A stretch of DNA of 64,000 nt, from contig DASWFI010000007.1 of NCBI GenBank assembly GCA_036394315.1, positions 3,984 through 67,983 of the forward strand, in the 5' to 3' direction. A program made the translations under genes and the position numbers. Below are positions 3,082 through 62,827 of the stretch, piece by piece. Every line of letters starts with the position of its first letter. Positions within the stretch are counted from its first letter, which is position 1. This DNA is from Patescibacteria group bacterium. Its GTDB lineage: Bacteria > Patescibacteriota > Doudnabacteria > UBA920 > O2-02-FULL-48-8. The notes under the pieces are model-generated. The model did no database searches. It worked only from the letters and a program-made list of their open reading frames with translations, and was not told the DNA's origin.

Positions 3082-3480
3082 TTATTTAGGCAGTTCGCCG
3101 CGTCGCTTCATCACGGTTTTAATTTTAGCCACCAATTCTTCCAAACGATAATTCGCCTTTACCAGGTAATCCATAGCTCCCAACGACAAAGCCTCTGAAA
3201 CTTTATCATAATCCGAGAGGTTGGTCAGAATCACCACCTGAATATCTTTTGTCTCCGGGTTTTCTTTCATCTGCTTGAGTGCACCTATCCCATCGAGTCG
3301 GGGCATGACTAAATCCAGCAGGATCAGATCGGGTTTTTCCGAAACGGCTTTTTCCACTCCTTCCATTCCATCCTTGGCGCCCACGACCTCAAAACCCTCT
3401 TGTTTCAGCTCCTCGCAAAGCGCGGTAAGCAAGATTTCCTCGTCCTCGACGATCAAAACCTTAATTTTTTTATCTACCAT
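3082..3480 (-). CDS. Stand-alone response regulator receiver domain (CheY-like)
   Basis: KVLIVEDE...LILLDLVMP...phospho-acceptor Asp context...ILTNLSD...K; 132 aa with no output domain. Confidence 0.85.
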   Translation of the reverse strand: MVDKKIKVLIVEDEEILLTALCEELKQEGFEVVGAKDGMEGVEKAVSEKPDLILLDLVMPRLDGIGALKQMKENPETKDIQVVILTNLSDYDKVSEALSLGAMDYLVKANYRLEELVAKIKTVMKRRGELPK

Positions 3481-3604
3481 ATTTTTGTGTCTTTTCTTGT
3501 TAAATTGACTGTAATATTATAGCATATACTGACTAAAAAGAAAAAACCCAGCTAATCTATCCCACGAACGACGAACCACCCCCTTATTAAAACCTACTAT
3601 CCAA

Positions 3605-3640
3605 AGAAAAAAGTCTTTGACTTCTATCAAAGACTTTTTT
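3605..3640. terminator. Bidirectional rho-independent terminator
   Basis: aaaaaAGTCTTTGActtctatCAAAGACTtttttt: a 9-10 bp stem flanked by an A-tract and a T-tract, directly 3' of the tRNA-Tyr 3' end. Confidence 0.7.
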
Positions 3641-3936: not shown

Positions 3937-4010
3937 TGGAGCCCCCGGGTAGAATCGAACTACCGCCTACAGTTTACAAAACTGTTGTTCTGCCACTGAA
4001 CTAAGGGGGC
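3937..4010 (-). tRNA. tRNA-Thr(UGU), CCA encoded
   Basis: Reverse complement GCCCCCUUAGUUCAGUGGCAGAACAACAGUUUUGUAAACUGUAGGCGGUAGUUCGAUUCUACCCGGGGGCUCCA. Anticodon loop UUUGUAA, T-loop UUCGAUU, discriminator U73, one U-C mismatch at 7:66. Confidence 0.85.
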
Positions 4011-29918: not shown

Positions 29919-30009
29919 TGGCGGAGAGAGTGGGATTCGAACCCACGGGACGGCTATTAACCGTCGCAGGTTAGCAACCTGCTGCCTTAAGCCACTCGGC
30001 CATCTCTCC
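29919..30009 (-). tRNA. tRNA-Ser(GCU), type II, CCA encoded
   Basis: GGAGAGAUGGCCGAGUGG...GCAGG-UUGCUAA-CCUGC...long variable arm...GUGGGUUCGAAUCCCAC-UCUCUCC-G-CCA. Confidence 0.9.
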
Positions 30010-30653: not shown

Positions 30654-31587
30654 GGACGAATTAATTGAAAAGCTTTTGAAAAGCGTGTCGCGGACCCAAG
30701 TCCCCGCTTTTGACTTTGCCCGCGTCCGCAATCAAATTCTGGATCGAATATCAGTCCCGCAAATGGCCAAGTCCGGCGTGCTCGCCAGACTCAATGCCTT
30801 CGTTCCTTATTTGCGCATGGGCGGGGGTGTCTTGGCTTCCCTACTCATAGTCACAAGCTTAACATTGGCCACTTCTGTAGCAGCGCTGCAGAGTGCTCCA
30901 GGCTCAATGATTTATCCTTTGAAAAAAATTGTGGAGAACATCCAATTACGATTAGCTCCGGCAGACCAACGGACGAATCTCCAGCTGAAATTTGCCGACA
31001 ACCGCGCCGATGAATTACAGCAAGTTTTGGATCAAAATCAGCAAGGCAAAATTTCTAATCAAGAAGCAGAAACCATCGTGGCTAACACTGTTAAGGAATT
31101 ACAAAATACCACTGCCGCTGCGATTACTGCCAACAAAACCAAGCCGAAATCCAATTCTATAGTCAATAAACTGGCGAATATCAGTAACAAATTACTGGCT
31201 GCTTCCGTTCAAAGTGAAGGACAGCTCAAAATCGAATTGGAAAAGGCTTTCGAATCCACAAAAATCACACAGGAAGAAGCTATCAAAAACCTCGAACAAG
31301 CAGGCCTCAAGGTAGAAAACGCTCCTATAACTATAGATGACTTCGTCAAAGCCTCGGGCAAATTAACCGCGGTCACTACCGATTCTGTAAGCATTGGCAC
31401 AGCCAAATTCCTTTTAACCAAAGATACTAAATTCACGGGTTTGGAGGCTAAAGATTTGAAAGCGGGAGTATTAGTTGACATAAATGGTCAAATCAAAGAT
31501 AATAAATCGTACGCGGTCCAAATAACCAAACTCTCTGAAATCAAGACAGAAACCACTGCTCCTGCTACCACGACTGTAACTCAGTAA
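30643..31587 (+). CDS. Putative anti-sigma factor / membrane protein coupled to the ECF sigma
   Basis: Overlaps the sigma gene stop by 11 nt; a single TM at about aa 65-85 and a long extracytoplasmic region. Confidence 0.45.
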   Translation: METKDELIEKLLKSVSRTQVPAFDFARVRNQILDRISVPQMAKSGVLARLNAFVPYLRMGGGVLASLLIVTSLTLATSVAALQSAPGSMIYPLKKIVENIQLRLAPADQRTNLQLKFADNRADELQQVLDQNQQGKISNQEAETIVANTVKELQNTTAAAITANKTKPKSNSIVNKLANISNKLLAASVQSEGQLKIELEKAFESTKITQEEAIKNLEQAGLKVENAPITIDDFVKASGKLTAVTTDSVSIGTAKFLLTKDTKFTGLEAKDLKAGVLVDINGQIKDNKSYAVQITKLSEIKTETTAPATTTVTQ

Positions 31588-31791: not shown

Positions 31792-31881
31792 GGTGGGGTC
31801 GCATAGTGGTTTAGTGCACCGGTCTTGAAAACCGGAGTCGGTTAACGCCGACCGAGAGTTCGAATCTCTCCCCCACCGCCA
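31792..31881 (+). tRNA. tRNA-Ser(UGA), type II, CCA encoded
   Basis: GGUGGGG...CCGGU-CUUGAAA-ACCGG...long variable arm...GAGAG-UUCGAAU-CUCUC-CCCCACC-G-CCA. Confidence 0.88.
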
Positions 31882-32394: not shown

Positions 32395-32469
32395 GCGCTC
32401 GTCGTTCAACGGATAGGACTCAAGCTTGCGGAGCTTGTAATCGAGGTTCGATTCCTCGCGAGCGCACCA
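32395..32469 (+). tRNA. tRNA-Arg (anticodon reads GCG), CCA encoded
   Basis: GCGCUCG...CAAGC-UUGCGGA-GCUUG...CGAGG-UUCGAUU-CCUCG-CGAGCGC-A-CCA; the acceptor stem is perfect. Confidence 0.85.
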
Positions 32470-32505: not shown

Positions 32506-34575
32506 TTGCTGTTTTTTTGTTATAATGAACCCATGTCATTTGACCTTTCCATCCCAATAGAACAACTTTACTTAGTAGGTCCTGCGCGGGCCAAGCTTTT
32601 GAAAAATCTTGGCATTGAAACGCTGAACGATCTGCTTTTTTATTTTCCTCGGGCCCACCACGACCTTTCGAAATTTACATCAATCATAGACCTGAAAGCC
32701 GGCGAAAACGCCAATATCAAGGGCCGAATTTTGGAAGTCAAAAGCTTTCGAACCAAAGTCCGCCGATTCAGCCTGACACAAGCATTGGTGGAAGATGGGA
32801 CGGGAAGCATTATTTGCGTTTGGTTCAATCAGCCTTTTTTGGCCAAAGTTATAAAACCGCATGAAGAATTCGTTTTCTCCGGCAAAGTAACAATTGCCAA
32901 AAATAAACTACAATTGCAAAATCCAGTTTACGAACCAGTGCGAGCCGAACAAATTCATACCTCGCGATTAGTCCCGCTCTACTCCCTCACTGCCAGCCTG
33001 ACTCAAAAACAACTTCGTTATATTATTAAAACTTACCTGGACAAGGTTATTCTGCCGGAATATTTACCAGCTGATATTTTGCGCAAGGAAAAACTGTTTA
33101 GTCAGGATAACGCAGTCAAGACTTTTCATTTCCCCCAAGATTATGCTTCGCTGAAACTTGCGCAAAGCAGACTGGCTTTTGACGAAATTTTTCAAACACA
33201 ACTGCGCGTCATGCGCTATAAAAAACAACGCGAATATCGCTCAAGCGTGAAAATTGATACCAGCATCGACCTCTCCCAAAAAATCAAACAACTCCCTTTC
33301 GAGCTGACCGATGGACAAAAAGTCGCTTTGAGTGAAATCATTTCAGATTTCAAAAAACCTTTTCCTGCCAACCGTTTGCTCGAAGGCGACGTGGGCAGCG
33401 GCAAAACGATCATTGCGGCTCTGGCTATGTGGCTTGTGGCTCAAAACAACCTCCAAACAGCTCTGCTTTCGCCTACCGAGGTTTTGGCCACCCAGCACTA
33501 CAACAATCTGGTTAATTTTTTCTCAGCGGATAATATCGACGTTGCCCTGCTAACTTCCACCCAATCAAAACTAAATGGTAATCCGGTTTCCAAGGCTACA
33601 GTGTTGGCACAGATCAAATCAGGACAAGTAAAAATTGCCATCGGCACTCATGCTTTGCTGGAAAAACAGGTAGATTTTAAAAATTTAAGCTTGATAATTA
33701 TTGATGAGCAGCATCGATTTGGAGTGGAGCAACGATCAGCATTAAAGCAAAACAGCAATGCTCATTTGTTGACTATGAGCGCCACTCCTATCCCCCGCAC
33801 CTTGGCATTAACCCTGTACGGGGATCTGGACTTATCCATATTGAAAGAGTCGCCCGCAGGACGGCAAAAAATCGTTACCAGGATCGTTTCCGAAGAAAAT
33901 CGAGCGAAGGCTTATGAATTTATCGCCCAACAGATCCAATTAGGCCGCCAAGTATTCGTTATTTGTCCGTTAGTCGAAGAGTCAGATAAACTTGGAGTAA
34001 AATCCGCCACAGCTGAGTACAAAAAACTTTCTACAGAAATTTTCCCGCAATTCAAAGTCGGGTTACTACATGGACGGCTAAAACCTGCGCAAAAAGAAAA
34101 AGTCATGGCAGAATTTAAAGACAATCAACTGCAGATTTTAGTTTCAACTTCCGTCATCGAGGTTGGAGTCGATGTGCCTAATGCCACGGTCATGATGATC
34201 GAAGGCGCAGAACGATTTGGTTTGGCTCAGTTACATCAATTCCGCGGTCGCGTTGGCCGCGGCGAACACAAATCTTATTGTTTTCTTTTTTCCGACGATC
34301 CGCAGTCTCTGACCAATCCCCGACTTCAGGCGATCACAGAAAGCATCAATGGCTTTGAACTGGCGGAAAAAGATTTGGAAATTCGAGGTGCTGGCGATTT
34401 ATACGGCACCCAGCAAAGCGGTTATAACTTCAAAGTTGCCACTTTAAACAATTTGGATTTGGTTCAGCGATCACGGGACTATGCTGAAGCTTTACTTGAC
34501 TCTGATATGGAATTAAAAAAATATCCCCTCCTGAAACAAAAAATCGAAGCCCAACCAATGGTGCATCTGGAGTAA
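32506..34575 (+). CDS. recG: ATP-dependent DNA helicase RecG
   Basis: Wedge/OB N-terminus; helicase motifs I (GDVGSGKT), II (DEQH) and VI (QLHQFRGRVGRG). Confidence 0.9.
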   Translation: MLFFCYNEPMSFDLSIPIEQLYLVGPARAKLLKNLGIETLNDLLFYFPRAHHDLSKFTSIIDLKAGENANIKGRILEVKSFRTKVRRFSLTQALVEDGTGSIICVWFNQPFLAKVIKPHEEFVFSGKVTIAKNKLQLQNPVYEPVRAEQIHTSRLVPLYSLTASLTQKQLRYIIKTYLDKVILPEYLPADILRKEKLFSQDNAVKTFHFPQDYASLKLAQSRLAFDEIFQTQLRVMRYKKQREYRSSVKIDTSIDLSQKIKQLPFELTDGQKVALSEIISDFKKPFPANRLLEGDVGSGKTIIAALAMWLVAQNNLQTALLSPTEVLATQHYNNLVNFFSADNIDVALLTSTQSKLNGNPVSKATVLAQIKSGQVKIAIGTHALLEKQVDFKNLSLIIIDEQHRFGVEQRSALKQNSNAHLLTMSATPIPRTLALTLYGDLDLSILKESPAGRQKIVTRIVSEENRAKAYEFIAQQIQLGRQVFVICPLVEESDKLGVKSATAEYKKLSTEIFPQFKVGLLHGRLKPAQKEKVMAEFKDNQLQILVSTSVIEVGVDVPNATVMMIEGAERFGLAQLHQFRGRVGRGEHKSYCFLFSDDPQSLTNPRLQAITESINGFELAEKDLEIRGAGDLYGTQQSGYNFKVATLNNLDLVQRSRDYAEALLDSDMELKKYPLLKQKIEAQPMVHLE

Positions 34576-34665
34576 TGGATCGCCCTGCTTGACTTGCGTA
34601 TTTTTATAGCGTAAAATTATCCTATTGTTCGTTATATGGTCACCATATCTGACAGGAGGTCACTT

Positions 34666-34863
34666 ATGCCCCAGCCGGAACTCAGCCGCAAGCAGCGCAA
34701 GCAACTGGCCAACTTCAAGAGCGAGATGGCTCACCAGGGCGTGCACAACCGTGTGCAGTTCGATGCCTTCGTTAAGAAGATGAAGCCGGAGGAATACACG
34801 CGCATTGCGGGGCTGATTCCACACGCATTCCCATCTCCGCAATCGGCGGCTCGCGCATCGTAA
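34666..34863 (+). CDS. Small hypothetical protein on a GC-rich (~55%) islet with a perfect AGGAGG SD
   Basis: ATG at 34666 lies 8 nt after AGGAGG. The islet's GC is far above the window background. Confidence 0.45.
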   Translation: MPQPELSRKQRKQLANFKSEMAHQGVHNRVQFDAFVKKMKPEEYTRIAGLIPHAFPSPQSAARAS

Positions 34864-34947
34864 GATCAACGTCGGAGGAGTCGTGGACATTCGCCCACCC
34901 TGACTAACACTACTGTAACCCACTCCAACATCAATTCCGACCACAGT

Positions 34948-35241
34948 ATGGAGACAGTAGTGGATACATTCGAACTTCGTCCTTCCGTCAAAGCGGTCGT
35001 TCAGAACGACCTTCTCTCCCAGAACCTCAAACAAGGAACAGAGGTGACGCTCGGTCGAGCCAGTCTCAGCGGCGCGCTTGCGAAAATCGAAGGCAGCAAC
35101 AAGTACGACGTGATTGCTGAATTCGATGCCGAAGCCGTCGAGGAAATAAAGAAGCAGGCAAAGGAAGCGCGCAAGATGGCCGCTATGTACTGCAGCGAGC
35201 CTGTGGTCCGTCGTCGTCCGAACATGCAACGCGTCTGGTAG
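34948..35241 (+). CDS. Small hypothetical protein on the same GC-rich islet
   Basis: 97 aa, protein-like composition; the antisense ORF 34660-35229 looks like low-complexity noise. Confidence 0.4.
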   Translation: METVVDTFELRPSVKAVVQNDLLSQNLKQGTEVTLGRASLSGALAKIEGSNKYDVIAEFDAEAVEEIKKQAKEARKMAAMYCSEPVVRRRPNMQRVW

Positions 35242-35534
35242 TCTACGCCGACCTTTAAAAGCCTGAGAGACAGATCCGGGGAAGGAACTGTCATTCTGCC
35301 TTTTAGACTTTTAACGGTGTTGCTCTAGGGTGAGAGAACGACCTTGCCTACCGGATCCAGACAGTTCCGGTAAGGAATCGACTCAGTACCCGCGGGGCAG
35401 CCTGGGTGCTCTTTCCCAGAGAGTCACCCAGCATTTTCACGCCAGTGGATCGCATCGATCCCTGGCTCTTTTTTTTGAGAATTATTTAGTAGTTACAGCA
35501 ATTCCGCCCTTTTGTCTGCACAATGGTGGCAAAA

Positions 35535-36548
35535 TCATTTACTAATCATGTATAACTTATTGTCTCGGCTGTCGGTGTAATAAATCGTATTACCGATAAG
35601 CATTACATTTTTTGATTGCACTTCGGAAGTTGGTTCAAAATAACTTTCAGATTTACCATTGCTCAAATTCAATTTTATGAACGTATCTCCGGATTTATCA
35701 GACTTGGGCACGGCGGCATAAAAAATTTTTCCAGATGCATCGGCCGTGATTTTATCTAGAGCCGTGTTTAAATTCAAATCAATAGCCAACTTATTTAAAA
35801 CATCAAATAAATAGATCTTGGAATTTTGAGCGTACAGAAACATATTCCCTACGGGAAGCCATAATACGCCGGTGTTCTTCCCAGTGTCTACCAAGGTGCT
35901 CATGGCACCGGAGTCCAGATTGGTCGCGTAAATTTTATTGGTATCACCCTCAATTTTGGAGCGATACATTAAGATAGTTTTACCGTCGGGCGAAGCTTTT
36001 AGGATCAAATCCGGCCAGAATAATGGTGCGATAATTTTGTATCCGGAGCCGTCAGCATTGGCCCTCACCAGCTGTTGAGATTTTTTGTCCGAGGCTTGCC
36101 AGACGTAAACCACCCGTTTGCCATCAGGGAGCCACTCTATCCACTGCACATTGTCCGCTAAGTTGATAAAAAACTTGTTGGCACTGTCGAAATAATCTTT
36201 ATAAAATTTATTGCCATCAACGGCAAAAGATATGAAATCGGATCCTTGCTTGGGCCAAATAACACTCCGTAGCTTGCCATTCGGCAATGGTGGCAGTGGA
36301 AATTCTGAAATATTAGTGCCGTCGGTATTGACCTTAAACAGACGCCCATCAGCATTAAAATACCAAATGGAGTTATTATCAAAAGCCCCGACTGGAGAAA
36401 TTACGGCTTCATCCAAAATTTTCTTTATGGAAGGAGGGCTCTGGGTATAAGTATTTGTTTTCTGTGACTGTTTTTTCGCATAAAATAAAACCCCGCCGAT
36501 TATCAGCAATATTATCACCCCTATGATTATAAGATTTCGTTTATTCAT
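35535..36548 (-). CDS. Membrane-anchored beta-rich hypothetical protein (possible beta-propeller), last gene of the T4SS-like operon
   Basis: N-terminal TM (IIGVIILLIIGGVLFY) followed by repetitive beta-strand-like segments. Confidence 0.45.
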   Translation of the reverse strand: MNKRNLIIIGVIILLIIGGVLFYAKKQSQKTNTYTQSPPSIKKILDEAVISPVGAFDNNSIWYFNADGRLFKVNTDGTNISEFPLPPLPNGKLRSVIWPKQGSDFISFAVDGNKFYKDYFDSANKFFINLADNVQWIEWLPDGKRVVYVWQASDKKSQQLVRANADGSGYKIIAPLFWPDLILKASPDGKTILMYRSKIEGDTNKIYATNLDSGAMSTLVDTGKNTGVLWLPVGNMFLYAQNSKIYLFDVLNKLAIDLNLNTALDKITADASGKIFYAAVPKSDKSGDTFIKLNLSNGKSESYFEPTSEVQSKNVMLIGNTIYYTDSRDNKLYMISK

Positions 36549-36551
36549 ATT

Positions 36552-37844
36552 TTAATAAGGCATATAATATTCACTGGGATTTGTAAACGCTTGAAGTTCT
36601 CCTTGTCTGCCTACACAATTCGGATCACTGGATAATCCCATATGCACATGGGCTCCGCTGGCTCGATCTGACGGCCGCCTGTATTCATCCTGGATGTATC
36701 CAAAGCCAGCTGAGCGTCCAAGAGATACCAGGGCGTCAATCCGAGCTGCATCGGCGGGCGAAGGATTTCTAGGGTCACCCACCGGAGGAATAAGCACAAA
36801 GTCGGTTGCCTCTCCTAGCATATGACAGCTATAAGCATAATTATGCGGGGCAGCGCAGTTTGGCTGCCGTAGGGCACTGGTGACCACAAAATTAATACCA
36901 GCACTGCTCTTGTTTGCAAAAACCTTATTTACTAAATCCAATTGCGCTTGTTTTACTCTTGGAAAATCACAGATCGATACTCCAAAATTATAGGAACTAA
37001 TATATGCTTGAGGGATATCAGCTAATAAACTATAACCTCCTGATGTTCCTCCGCCCCCGCTCCTGCTGGGGACTTGGGTATCAGCCGCTGAACAAAAATC
37101 TCCCCGGATCGCTGTTATAGTCGTACCAATATTAAAAGGTAAGAAATGAGCAGCTATTGCGGCTTTACCACTAGCATCGCCACAAGCAGCCCAATACCCT
37201 GAATAAATTATAACAATGAACACCAGGGGGATGATTGCGACTATAAGATTTGCAAAAAGCAAAGCTATCTGCTGGAACAGGTTCATCCGGCCAAAGATCT
37301 TGGAGCCAAATTTGGACATTATCCAATGAAAATCCAGATAGAGAAGAGCTATGGCCGCAGGGATTAACGAAACAATAGTTGGCGAAAGGATAATATCGAG
37401 TGTTAAAAAGCCAAAAGCGAACCAAAGAATAAAAGTGCTCCACGCACTTTTTGCAACTCCGCCTACGCCTTCTCCACGTAATGCCCCGGCCACAGCACCA
37501 GCAAGAGCCGCTTCTGACCCTGCTCCAAGGCTTGCTGCCTTTTCGGCGAACTTACCAGCGCTCTGACCAGCAGCTGCCTGCTTCGCAGCTCTGACTTTAG
37601 CAGAATTTATAGCATACCCAGCAAATTTTTTACCATACTTATCAGCTGCATCGGTATTAGCCAGTCCGCCACTACCTGCGAGATTGCCTCCTTCATTTAA
37701 TAAACCTGCAAATTCTTCATTACCAGATTTCTTAGCAAAATTTTCACCTAATCTAGCAGCTTTTTGGAGTCTTTGTCTTCTTTGCTGCTGCTTTAAACTG
37801 GCGAGTTCCTCTGCATTTTCCAGTTCCTCATCCAATGTTGGCAT
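36552..37844 (-). CDS. Membrane protein with a C-terminal peptidase M15 (VanY/D-Ala-D-Ala carboxypeptidase-like) cell-wall hydrolase domain
   Basis: Ala/Gly-rich N-terminus, about 4 TM helices, and a C-terminal H-x6-D (SCHMLGEATDF) plus HVHMG zinc-ligand pattern of M15 peptidases. Confidence 0.6.
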   Translation of the reverse strand: MPTLDEELENAEELASLKQQQRRQRLQKAARLGENFAKKSGNEEFAGLLNEGGNLAGSGGLANTDAADKYGKKFAGYAINSAKVRAAKQAAAGQSAGKFAEKAASLGAGSEAALAGAVAGALRGEGVGGVAKSAWSTFILWFAFGFLTLDIILSPTIVSLIPAAIALLYLDFHWIMSKFGSKIFGRMNLFQQIALLFANLIVAIIPLVFIVIIYSGYWAACGDASGKAAIAAHFLPFNIGTTITAIRGDFCSAADTQVPSRSGGGGTSGGYSLLADIPQAYISSYNFGVSICDFPRVKQAQLDLVNKVFANKSSAGINFVVTSALRQPNCAAPHNYAYSCHMLGEATDFVLIPPVGDPRNPSPADAARIDALVSLGRSAGFGYIQDEYRRPSDRASGAHVHMGLSSDPNCVGRQGELQAFTNPSEYYMPY

Positions 37845-62446: not shown

Positions 62447-62827
62447 GGGGCTGAATTGATTCGACAGGTGTTCCTTCAAAATCACAGCAAGTCCGATTAG
62501 CCTAATCTCTCGGTTAAAAAGAAAAGGTAAATCATAAATGCCAAAAATTTGGTAAGCAGATTCGTGAATGCTTTTGCATTCTCACCTGCTATGGTTGCTG
62601 CTTAATTAAGTAACAACCCATCAGCCTTTCGGTGTTCTTCCGAAAGTACCTGGTGTTATATTAAGAACTTACTTTGATCGGTACTCGACGATCAAAAGGA
62701 CATTTAGAGCAACCTTAAACTGTTTTCGTTTCGCTTCTATAGTTTAAGATAAACAAGCGAAACTAAACTTGTAGAAGTGGCTTTGAAAAACTCTTGGACG
62801 GGAGTTCACTGCTCCCCAGCTCCACCA
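62447..62827 (+). ncRNA. ssrA: tmRNA (SsrA)
   Basis: 5' GGGGCUGAAUUGAUUCGACAGG matches the canonical GGGGCUGAUUCUGGAUUCGACGGG. 3' GGACGGGAGUUCACUGCUCCCCAGCUCCACCA matches E. coli GGACGCGGGUUCAACUCCCGCCAGCUCCACCA. The G3:U70 pair and A73 are present. A tag ORF ends ...SPAMVAA and is followed by UAA. Confidence 0.82.

Follow-up and report, generated by a model that had tools for sequence, protein, structure and literature searches.

In translational attenuators of the ermC, catA86 and cmlA type, the 5' arm of a hairpin lies within the footprint of a ribosome at the stall site, and the 3' arm carries the Shine-Dalgarno (SD) sequence and start codon of the next gene. The hok/mok/sok, repA/tap and repZ/repY systems share dependence on a leader open reading frame (ORF), a structured and stable transcript, and kissing RNA contacts. 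Another described class, the RAPP-like (RxPP) arrest peptides, is defined by a C-terminal Arg-x-Pro-Pro motif (x being Ala, Gly, Ser, or Pro) in the product of a short ORF upstream of the regulated gene (PMC12992588); the members compared here were SecM (RAGP), ApdA and ApdP (both RAPP), ApcA (RAPG), and the RAPP/RGPP upstream ORFs of Streptomyces. For stalls that depend on elongation factor P (EF-P), the strongest motifs have Arg or His immediately before three prolines, with RPPP at the top of all (PMC4176338). Here, we describe a 64,000-nt stretch of DNA from a Patescibacteria group bacterium of the Doudnabacteria (assembly GCA_036394315.1, contig DASWFI010000007.1, positions 3,984 to 67,983, forward strand), hereafter called the window, and within it a GC-rich islet located between recG and a convergent gene. 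The islet holds two small ORFs (ORF1 and ORF2), a mini-ORF of six codons between them, and a structured RNA at its 3' end. The reading we favor, with a probability of roughly 0.55, is that the islet is a lineage-specific cassette in which a stalling leader would gate the second gene of a small-protein operon that ends in a stable kissing-loop domain.

The leader and the hairpin that masks ORF2

Related loci were collected with RecG as a query, through ~50 orthologues of the 337-aa protein encoded by the convergent neighbor, by a metagenome scan, and from 11 further contigs; they are referred to by L numbers. The RecG query led to a Candidatus Doudnabacteria genome (L002, RecG 77% identical) with an islet of 52–59% GC at the same site, and overall the arrangement of recG, islet, and convergent 337-aa gene was found in 13 distinct Doudnabacteria-type loci, with RecG proteins that are 69–84% identical. 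In the window, the spacer between ORF1 and ORF2 contains an SD sequence (GGAGGAG, 34874–34880) followed by the mini-ORF (34883–34903), the two together spanning 34874–34903 on the plus strand. The mini-ORF reads GTG GAC ATT CGC CCA CCC TGA and would encode M-D-I-R-P-P before its stop codon. An earlier note on this DNA had described both small ORFs as driven by SD sequences. This holds for ORF1, which is preceded by AGGAGG, whereas the second strong SD serves the six-codon ORF and not the 97-aa ORF.

Leader mini-ORFs are present in 10 of the 13 islets, five of which have exactly six codons. Besides MDIRPP in the window, the peptides that run to a stop codon are MKIRAP (L030), MKCRPP (L008), MRIRPP (L006), MIRPPP (L010), MQNTHPP (L040), and, as a longer form, MSRRPRPPPC (L002); the other longer forms are MTRRPRPPPS… (L031), …ERPPPC… (L036), and MGHARPPPQ… (L034). 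RPPP is found in five relatives (L010, L002, L031, L036, and L034), and the mini-ORF starts 4–12 nt past the ORF1 stop in L002, L031, and L036. The Arg is encoded by CGC, CGT, CGG, or AGA, the wobble bases of the Pro codons are variable, and TGA, TAA, and TAG are all used as stops. These switches of Arg codon, the wobble variation, the varied stops, and the five six-codon copies argue for selection on the leader peptide. The mini-ORF pattern occurs once in the 64 kb of the window, compared with 0.07 occurrences expected.

In the minimum-free-energy fold of 34871–34975, the ribosome-binding site (RBS) of ORF2 is masked by a hairpin (34908–34962, plus strand). Its 5' arm consists of CACUACUGU (34908–34916) and CUCCA (34923–34927), and its 3' arm of UGGAG (34949–34953), which is the SD, and ACAGUAGUG (34954–34962), which includes the GTG start codon. 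For pairing of the 32 nt that follow the Pro codons with the ORF2 binding site, the calculated energy was −19.6 kcal/mol, versus −10.4 ± 2.6 kcal/mol for shuffled sequences (p = 0.004). The corresponding p-values were <0.001 for both L008 and L034, 0.001 for L040, 0.012 for L030, and 0.056 for L036, and combining all 10 loci by Fisher's method resulted in p = 1.5e-8. The significant loci reach this masking complementarity with different sequences, and the distance from the leader motif to the ORF2 start stays constant at 50–67 nt. The 5' arm of the hairpin begins 5 nt beyond the leader stop, which places it inside the footprint of a ribosome paused on the leader, the footprint size being taken from erm/cat-type attenuators. 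On these sequence features, the spacer probably has the anatomy of a translational attenuator with a leader on which, we infer, ribosomes stall.

In the favored reading, the islet would be expressed as one transcription unit of ~850 nt, from the promoter at 34589–34617 to the terminator at 35441–35476. ORF1 would be translated freely from its consensus SD, and ORF2 would be silent by default, with its SD and start codon buried in the hairpin. In the window, a ribosome would pause at termination on the Arg-Pro-Pro of the six-codon leader; in the relatives, it would pause during elongation on Arg-Pro-Pro-Pro. As the 5' arm starts so close to the leader stop, the paused ribosome would cover it, the masking hairpin would open, and ORF2 would be translated. 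The output of ORF2 might then report how Pro-Pro stalls are resolved, be it through EF-P, release-factor activity, the supply of Pro-tRNA, or a ligand that binds the ribosome. The 3' domain would most likely be a stable one that protects the mRNA or is released as a 3'-untranslated region (UTR)-derived RNA. Promoter, leader, and RNA would form a chassis on which unrelated versions of ORF1 and ORF2 are exchanged among relatives. The role of such a cassette may be that of an addiction- or defense-like module or of a responder to translation status. We suggest only tentatively the broader view that the islet represents an undescribed modular RNA-protein unit of candidate-phyla-radiation bacteria, with a fixed chassis, interchangeable ORFan genes, a minimal (R/H)-P-P-stop sensor, and a kissing-loop RNA as its functional core; in this view, the RNA could be a scaffold, decoy, or catalytic RNA that works with the small proteins or on the type-IV-secretion-like machinery encoded next to it.

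Slow termination after Pro-Pro was reportedly described by Hayes, Bose and Sauer in 2002. Ribosomes stalled on stop-proximal Pro-Pro are classical substrates of transfer-messenger RNA (tmRNA), which makes the tmRNA gene of the window (62447–62827, tag peptide AKNLVSRFVNAFAFSPAMVAA) relevant to the leader. The window also carries four tRNA genes, Thr-tgt (3937–4010), Ser-gct (29919–30009), Ser-tga (31792–31881), and Arg-gcg (32395–32469), of which the tRNA-Arg gene is directly upstream of recG.

The 3' RNA, the coding modules, and the islet around them

The 3' region, 234 nt in length, has a folding energy of −94.6 kcal/mol (z = −4.9 versus dinucleotide shuffles) and contains the hairpin CCGGAUCCAGACAGUUCCGG, consistent with the structured, GC-rich 3' region that the earlier note had reported. 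On the plus strand, 35252–35431 forms a domain of ~190 nt in which two long hairpins are joined by a kissing loop and followed by a third hairpin. The first hairpin, H1 (35252–35318), is a rod of 24 pairs (18 in P1-P2 and six in P3) that shows compensatory changes in 10 of the 24 pairs, with 85% of the alignment cells paired; its loop contains an invariant GGGG (35278–35281) and the kissing strand ACUGUC (35287–35292). The second, H2 (35319–35401), is composed of P4a (35319–35324 with 35396–35401), a GAGAGAAC junction, P5 (CCUU.GCCU.ACC / GGU.AAGG), and a loop bearing the kissing partner GACAGU (35360–35365). P4a is 100% paired with U-G pairs included, and these would be mismatches if read on the minus strand; because the G-U pairs fit the plus strand only, the structure appears to act in the RNA sense and not as a DNA palindrome. 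All six pairs of the kissing loop show compensatory changes, and they are 100% paired in cis versus 38% when the two strands are taken from different genomes; L040 carries the variant GGAGTGTG/CACACTCC. The third hairpin, P6 (35402–35431, CUGGGUG ... CACCCAG, then a U-rich linker), is 100% paired with compensatory changes in five of seven pairs.

Seven full homologues of the RNA (window, L030, L034, L008, L006, L016, and L037) and two partial ones (L028 and L029) were identified, and L040 carries a further one. In the alignment, 92.3% of the cells are paired compared with 80.2% in shuffles, none of which reached this value (0/500), and compensatory changes occur in 24 of 50 pairs compared with 12.0 ± 2.2. 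When the partners were slid by 1–3 columns, 34–49% were paired. The 3' RNA is the best-conserved segment of the neighborhood and is present in a single copy in the window. No match to it was found in Rfam release 15 (4227 families) at the gathering threshold or at E-values up to 10; across 34400–35700 only three chance-level Rfam matches (E ≥ 1) were returned, and across the whole window only the tmRNA and the tRNAs. Judged by its covariation, the element is apparently an undescribed structured RNA. Three further ideas were considered and rejected: a CCUCC tract acting as an anti-SD decoy, as the window and L030 copies have no CCUCC; pairing of the GGGG loop with the Pro codons, as no covariation was seen and L030 has GCA yet keeps GGGG; and an ORF2-specific RNA partner, as module types combine freely. 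A 24-nt direct repeat of 79% identity was also observed, with one copy in ORF2 (35003–35026, AGAACGACCTTCTCTCCCAGAACC) and the other (35335–35358, AGAACGACCTTGCCTACCGGATCC) in the 3' RNA, at its conserved junction/P5 strand; it may be due to chance or may be a trace of an RNA or ORF origin.

By the pattern of their substitutions, ORF1 and ORF2 are real protein-coding genes, as the earlier note had supposed. Nucleotide identity by codon position follows the order 2 > 1 > 3 in 12 of 13 homologous pairs, the exception being L030/L006 (about flat at 0.43/0.42/0.37), and synonymous replacements are many, since 40–70% of the identical residues between homologous pairs carry different codons. ORF1 (34666–34863, plus strand, behind the AGGAGG at 34654–34659) encodes a small basic protein of 65 aa, not 66 as given before. 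It belongs to type A and is 46–56% identical to the ORF1 proteins of L008 and L034; against L034, the codon-position identity is 0.66/0.82/0.43, with a change of codon at 14 of the 34 residues that are identical. The AlphaFold2 single-sequence model has helices at residues 8–24, 29–38, and 41–50 (predicted local distance difference test, pLDDT, 68), and a Foldseek search of the PDB with this model returned no match. One ORF1 member matched the Pfam ANTAR family at E = 0.067, and the family profile matched an antiterminator in the PDB (1s8n) at E = 1.7, both below significance. ORF1 is thus predicted to be a small helical protein, and it may bind nucleic acid.

ORF2 (34948–35241, plus strand) is of type I. 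The 97-aa ORF reported earlier does exist when read from the ATG at 34948. The GTG at 34960, which lies behind GGAGA (34950–34954) and would result in 93 aa, is the more likely start on sequence grounds, because the N-termini of the relatives read M-x-T/A-F-x-L. Type I proteins share the core motif G-x-E-V-T-L-x-R-A-S-L-x-G and have homologues in L016, L002, L036, L034, L010, L008, and L040. Between the window and L016, the codon-position identity is 0.51/0.58/0.32, and different codons are used at 22 of the 32 residues that are identical. One true relative of ORF2 (P0098, 51% identity) emerged from a full HMMER search of 1.84 billion representatives, and a word-indexed search of 5.8 billion proteins with ORF1 and ORF2 returned only the query itself. 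Type I had weak sub-threshold matches to S1_2, eL27, and NYN, and its AlphaFold2 single-sequence model was poor (pLDDT 56). For all module types, no significant family was found in Pfam, PHROGs, NCBIfam, or PADLOC, and profile searches of the PDB gave just weak eL27, PlyCB, and antiterminator matches and a spurious match to a designed repeat. The earlier remark that the content resembles neither insertion sequences nor known toxin-antitoxin pairs agrees with the lack of family and repeat matches.

The coding modules differ among the islets. At least four types of ORF1 were distinguished, namely A (window, L008, and L034), B (L002, L006, and L036), C (L016 and L030), and D (L010, L031, and L041), in addition to a further, MPQ-initiated version in L040; A, B, and D seem to be remote relatives of one another. 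ORF2 occurs as type I, as a zinc-ribbon-like type with a CxxC...HxxC pattern, and as at least one other type. ORF1 and ORF2 types are shuffled both among themselves and relative to the host tree. Comparison of the window with L030 shows identities of 65–83% for recG, 58–69% for the neighbor gene, 57% for the leader region between the ORFs, and 79–92% for the 3' RNA; the two ORFs are unalignable (28–45%). The conserved segments of the islet coincide with its control elements, and the swapped segments with its coding modules. L037 (identical to L038) holds a reduced cassette that has no ORF1 and keeps RNA type 1; its promoter is followed by an AGGAGG-led ORF of four codons (MCSP, then a stop) and an overlapping 78-aa ORF, and then by an ORF2 of the zinc-ribbon type.

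The islet has a GC content of 54.9% (34650–35480) compared with a mean of 43.1% (standard deviation 2.8%) for 831-nt windows (z = 4.1), and it is the highest-GC segment of this length in the 64 kb, with the maximum at 34641–35471 and a runner-up of 51.5%. This confirms the islet of ~55% GC that the earlier note had placed between recG and the convergent gene. In 50-nt steps, GC rises at ~34650 (to within ~50 nt) and falls at ~35450. Upstream, the islet is bordered by the stop codon of recG (689 aa) at 34575, and downstream by the end of the convergent gene at 35535. The 337-aa protein encoded by this neighbor is beta-propeller-like, and its cluster also contains VirB4/TraC-like, PrgI-like, and TrbL-like genes. 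GC at third codon positions (GC3) is 0.54–0.80 in the islet ORFs compared with 0.35–0.53 in four neighboring genes of the window, which indicates a shift in composition beyond an amino-acid effect. The rarity of strong SDs in native genes, remarked on earlier, was likewise confirmed: among the 41 non-overlapping window ORFs that are 150 aa or longer, none has GGAGG upstream of any start codon within its first 30 codons, and just 7 have GGAG or GAGG in such a position. The islet SDs, AGGAGG and GGAGGAG, are unlike those of the native long ORFs.

A sigma-70-type promoter (34589–34617, plus strand) reads TTGACT-17 nt-TAAAAT and matches 10 of 12 consensus positions. The form TTGAC[A/T/G]-17-TAAAAT also stands right behind the recG stop in L030, L031, L002, L010, and L036, and the −10 box TAAAAT is retained in the remaining islets. 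The 5' UTR contains a hairpin read from the sequence on the plus strand (ATATGG-TCA-CCATAT, 34634–34648), which precedes the SD of ORF1 on the same strand (AGGAGG, 34654–34659); nearly every islet has AGGAGG or GGAGG in front of ORF1. The predicted intrinsic terminator (35441–35476, plus strand) has the stem GCCAGUGGAUCG-CAU-CGAUCCCUGGC (35441–35466), which includes GGATCGCATCGATCC, followed by CUC and U8 (35469–35476). The terminator noted earlier is therefore present, with a run of eight rather than nine T; a simple consensus scan overlooked it because of the internal mismatch in the stem and the 3 nt before the T-run. All complete islets end in a GC-rich hairpin and a T-rich run. Short spikes of ~55% GC were also seen near the islet at 30700–30899, 36600–36899, and 37400–37600, the latter two within a 430-aa gene of the secretion cluster that has an Ala/Gly-rich N-terminal half. 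In addition, the motif GTTCGTC or CGTTTCG(TC) occurs 3–25 nt upstream of GGAGG sites in the islets (34627–34633 in the window; also L008, L016, and L037), where it precedes the SD of ORF1, that of the mini-ORF, and sometimes that of ORF2. It is found 2.0 times per kb in the islets, versus 0.39 times per kb for the window overall, and might serve as a translation-initiation module common to these genes, as a binding site for a protein, or as an anchor for the recombination that exchanges modules.

Age of the islet and competing explanations

The 13 islets are 640–1070 nt long with 47–57% GC, versus 40–50% GC for the respective loci, and islet GC is ~52% irrespective of the GC content of the host. 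At four empty sites (L012, L014, L015, and L032), recG and the neighbor gene abut or are 28–150 nt apart. Neighbor-joining trees built for each of the two flanking proteins have L012, L014, and L015 at the base and L032 inside the group of islet bearers, a placement that fits one old gain and one loss. A repeat search for attachment (att) sites found no direct or inverted repeats bounding the islet, no integrase or transposase was found at the islet, and distant blastn searches of phage and plasmid collections yielded no match to it. The islet is therefore an old cassette, specific to its lineage and inherited at a fixed locus within a single Doudnabacteria clade. Exchange of coding modules within the clade, on an old chassis, is likely in view of the mosaic modules that depart from the host tree, the high GC3, and the host-independent GC of the islets.

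A viral sequence (L039, 1734–1753; IMG/VR UViG_3300013121_000007) matches the 20-nt RNA junction pattern exactly. This match was rejected as chance, as it lies in a 310-aa phage structural ORF with no other RNA feature, and it serves as a caution for scans by pattern alone. GC-rich, near-perfect palindromes resembling repetitive extragenic palindromes (REP-like), such as CCCCACCCCGCCC...GGGCGGGTGGGG in L014, fill the otherwise empty spacer between recG and the neighbor gene in L014 (~3470–3610) and L015 (~1085–1230). In L008 and L006 they also lie past the recG stop and ahead of the islet promoter, and in L034, L006, L010, L030, and L028 they occur in the tails beyond the terminator. They may belong to a distinct family of short repeats carried by these genomes. 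In L034/L035 (~1–2520), GIY-YIG and PD-(D/E)XK nuclease-family genes are inserted beside the VirB4-like ATPase gene; the window has neither.

Several observations weigh against the stalling-leader cassette. The masking duplex is weak in L031 (p = 0.17) and L002 (p = 0.22) and not significant in L010 (p = 0.43) and L006 (p = 0.55). L016, L041, and L037 have no R/H-P-P leader, and in L016 and L041 the SD stands directly before ORF2 without any leader. RPP alone gives no elongation stall in Escherichia coli (PMC4176338), and the window leader has two prolines followed by TGA where the EF-P polyproline motif has three prolines. A peptide of six residues cannot use the exit-tunnel contacts of classical arrest peptides. 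The C-rich Pro codons of the leader also pair with its own GGAGG in folds, so that part of the leader conservation could reside at the RNA level. Regarding the 3' domain, the alignment of seven full sequences was segmented by hand, fitted to the structure, and padded with N. The islet RNAs of L002/L036, L031, L010, and L041 are unrelated to it at the sequence level, although L002 and L036 share one RNA with covariation of its own (by eye). Protein and RNA module types do not co-vary, which leaves no evidence that they work jointly.

The pairing of GGAGG with the CCNCC codons, which appears in the minimum-free-energy folds of the window, L008, L006, L034, and L030, would also be expected if the mini-ORF were untranslated, with the conserved CGN CCN CCN tract pairing as RNA with the GGAGG ahead of it and the spacer functioning purely through RNA structure, for instance as a processing or stability site. 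We consider this RNA-only explanation quite unlikely. The Arg is kept across the CGN and AGA codon families and is replaced solely by His, and Arg and His are the two strongest promoters of PPP stalls (PMC4176338). Moreover, an in-frame start lies 4–10 nt past the SD in every SD-led case, the length of exactly six codons recurs in five loci with use of all three stop codons, and the starts near the ORF1 stop in L002, L031, and L036 fit termination-reinitiation. To extend the RNA view to the whole islet, as a long non-coding RNA whose ORFs are chance products of GC-rich sequence, is scarcely credible. GC-rich islands of AT-rich genomes are frequently RNA genes, the word-indexed search of 5.8 billion proteins turned up no relative for either ORF, and the opposite strand also holds an ORF, of 189 aa. 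However, this minus-strand ORF is not kept in the relatives, where the ORF modules differ, whereas ORF length, start position, and SD are kept across the 13 loci, and the conservation of protein where nucleotides are not conserved already refutes the explanation for ORF1 and ORF2.

A toxin-antitoxin, addiction, or defense module, with ORF1 as antitoxin or regulator, ORF2 as a repressed toxic effector, and the 3' RNA regulatory as in hok/mok/sok-type mRNAs, would be compatible with the attenuator mechanism. Two adjacent small genes in mix-and-match types are typical of such modules, translation of ORF2 is masked and dependent on a leader ORF, the modules are fast-evolving ORFans, and the cassette stands at the end of a type-IV-secretion-like cluster. 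Nevertheless, none of the module types matched a toxin, antitoxin, or defense family in Pfam, NCBIfam, PADLOC, or PHROGs. The genes do not overlap, being separated by 85–100 nt with the leader ORF in between, and ORF2 is not hydrophobic, unlike Hok-type toxins. There is no convincing antisense promoter (one 9/12 match on the minus strand at 34643–34616), and the cassette occurs as a single, vertically maintained copy on the chromosome. We regard this assignment as unlikely on balance. Recent import of foreign DNA bearing two accessory genes was the conclusion of the earlier note and appears improbable. It would account for the top-GC segment of the 64 kb, for a GC3 of 0.62–0.74 in its ORFs versus 0.35–0.53 in four neighboring genes, for consensus SDs that have no counterpart in native genes, and for ORF modules that conflict with the host tree together with an islet GC that is near constant across hosts of 40–50% GC. 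Nonetheless, recent acquisition is unsupported, because the GC-rich islet occupies the same place in 13 distant loci; with RecG proteins 69–84% identical and a promoter consensus shared by six loci, this conserved synteny refutes import for the chassis. Searches for flanking repeats, att sites, integrases, and transposases, which might have marked an insertion, found none; the phage and plasmid searches were empty, with a chance pattern match as the sole viral one; and the relatives in which recG abuts its neighbor, an arrangement the earlier note had raised, do exist at four empty or near-empty sites, in a pattern consistent with one old gain and one loss.

Comparison with known systems

If the stalling-leader cassette operates as proposed, its leader would rank as the shortest natural representative of the Arg-x-Pro-Pro stalling class and would act at a stop codon. 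Its source would be a phylum without genetics, in which gene regulation is almost unknown, and it would connect EF-P or termination capacity to the expression of one particular gene in a directly testable manner. As for the 3' element, it is a candidate for a new class of structured RNA with a well-supported tertiary contact, so far restricted to one candidate-phyla-radiation clade and conserved beyond the neighboring essential genes. Conserved control elements combined with swapped coding modules represent an unusual exchange of cassettes without a recognizable recombinase. For annotation, the case shows that GC-rich, SD-rich islets of AT-rich genomes need not stem from recent import and that the key signal can reside in a mini-ORF of just six codons.

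The islet is distinct from mobile elements and integron cassettes, as it has no recombinase gene, no bounding repeats, and a fixed location in 13 loci. It also differs from type II toxin-antitoxin systems, with neither recognizable domains nor coupled or overlapping genes. With respect to ANTAR regulators, ORF1 has three main helices in its AlphaFold2 model and sub-threshold ANTAR matches. In size, multi-helix architecture, tertiary loop-loop contact, and the invariant unpaired GGGG and GAGAGAAC, the 3' RNA is similar to riboswitch-class or "ornate" RNAs. It matches no Rfam family, and its position as the last element of an operon, with a terminator and a convergent gene directly after it, precludes a role as a conventional 5' cis-regulator. 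With hok/mok/sok and the rep leaders, the islet shares a leader-dependent small ORF, a structured transcript, and a loop-loop contact. It differs from them in that it has no antisense RNA gene, Rep protein, or hydrophobic toxin and in that its kissing loop is intramolecular and located in the 3' domain.

The closest parallels are found among stalling leaders. As in the RAPP-like motif, an irreplaceable Arg, a small residue or Pro, and then Pro stand at the C-terminus of a small upstream ORF (PMC12992588), with RPPP (x = Pro) in five relatives and R-A-P in L030, and the RBS of the downstream gene is held in a stem, which a ribosome stalled on the leader would open. The differences are that the fourth residue is replaced by a stop in the window (R-P-P-stop), as also in L030 (R-A-P-stop) and L040 (H-P-P-stop), so that any arrest in the window would occur at termination and not at the peptide bond with Pro-tRNA. 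Furthermore, the six-residue MDIRPP leaves no room for an N-terminal sensor, secretion, or membrane segment, and the downstream gene is an ORFan rather than a Sec, YidC, or metal-homeostasis gene. The relatives' leaders, with RPPP or the H-P-P of L040, resemble EF-P polyproline stalls (PMC4176338), from which the islet departs in having a dedicated leader ORF linked to an RBS-masking hairpin instead of an incidental motif within a protein. ORF2 is no recognizable resistance determinant in Pfam or NCBIfam, in contrast to the genes controlled by erm, cat, and cml attenuators. To our knowledge, the leader contains none of the known drug-dependent stall motifs of that type. In its very short, SD-led ORF (5–20 codons in those systems) and in the local anatomy of leader and hairpin, the window is nonetheless like the ermC, catA86, and cmlA attenuators.

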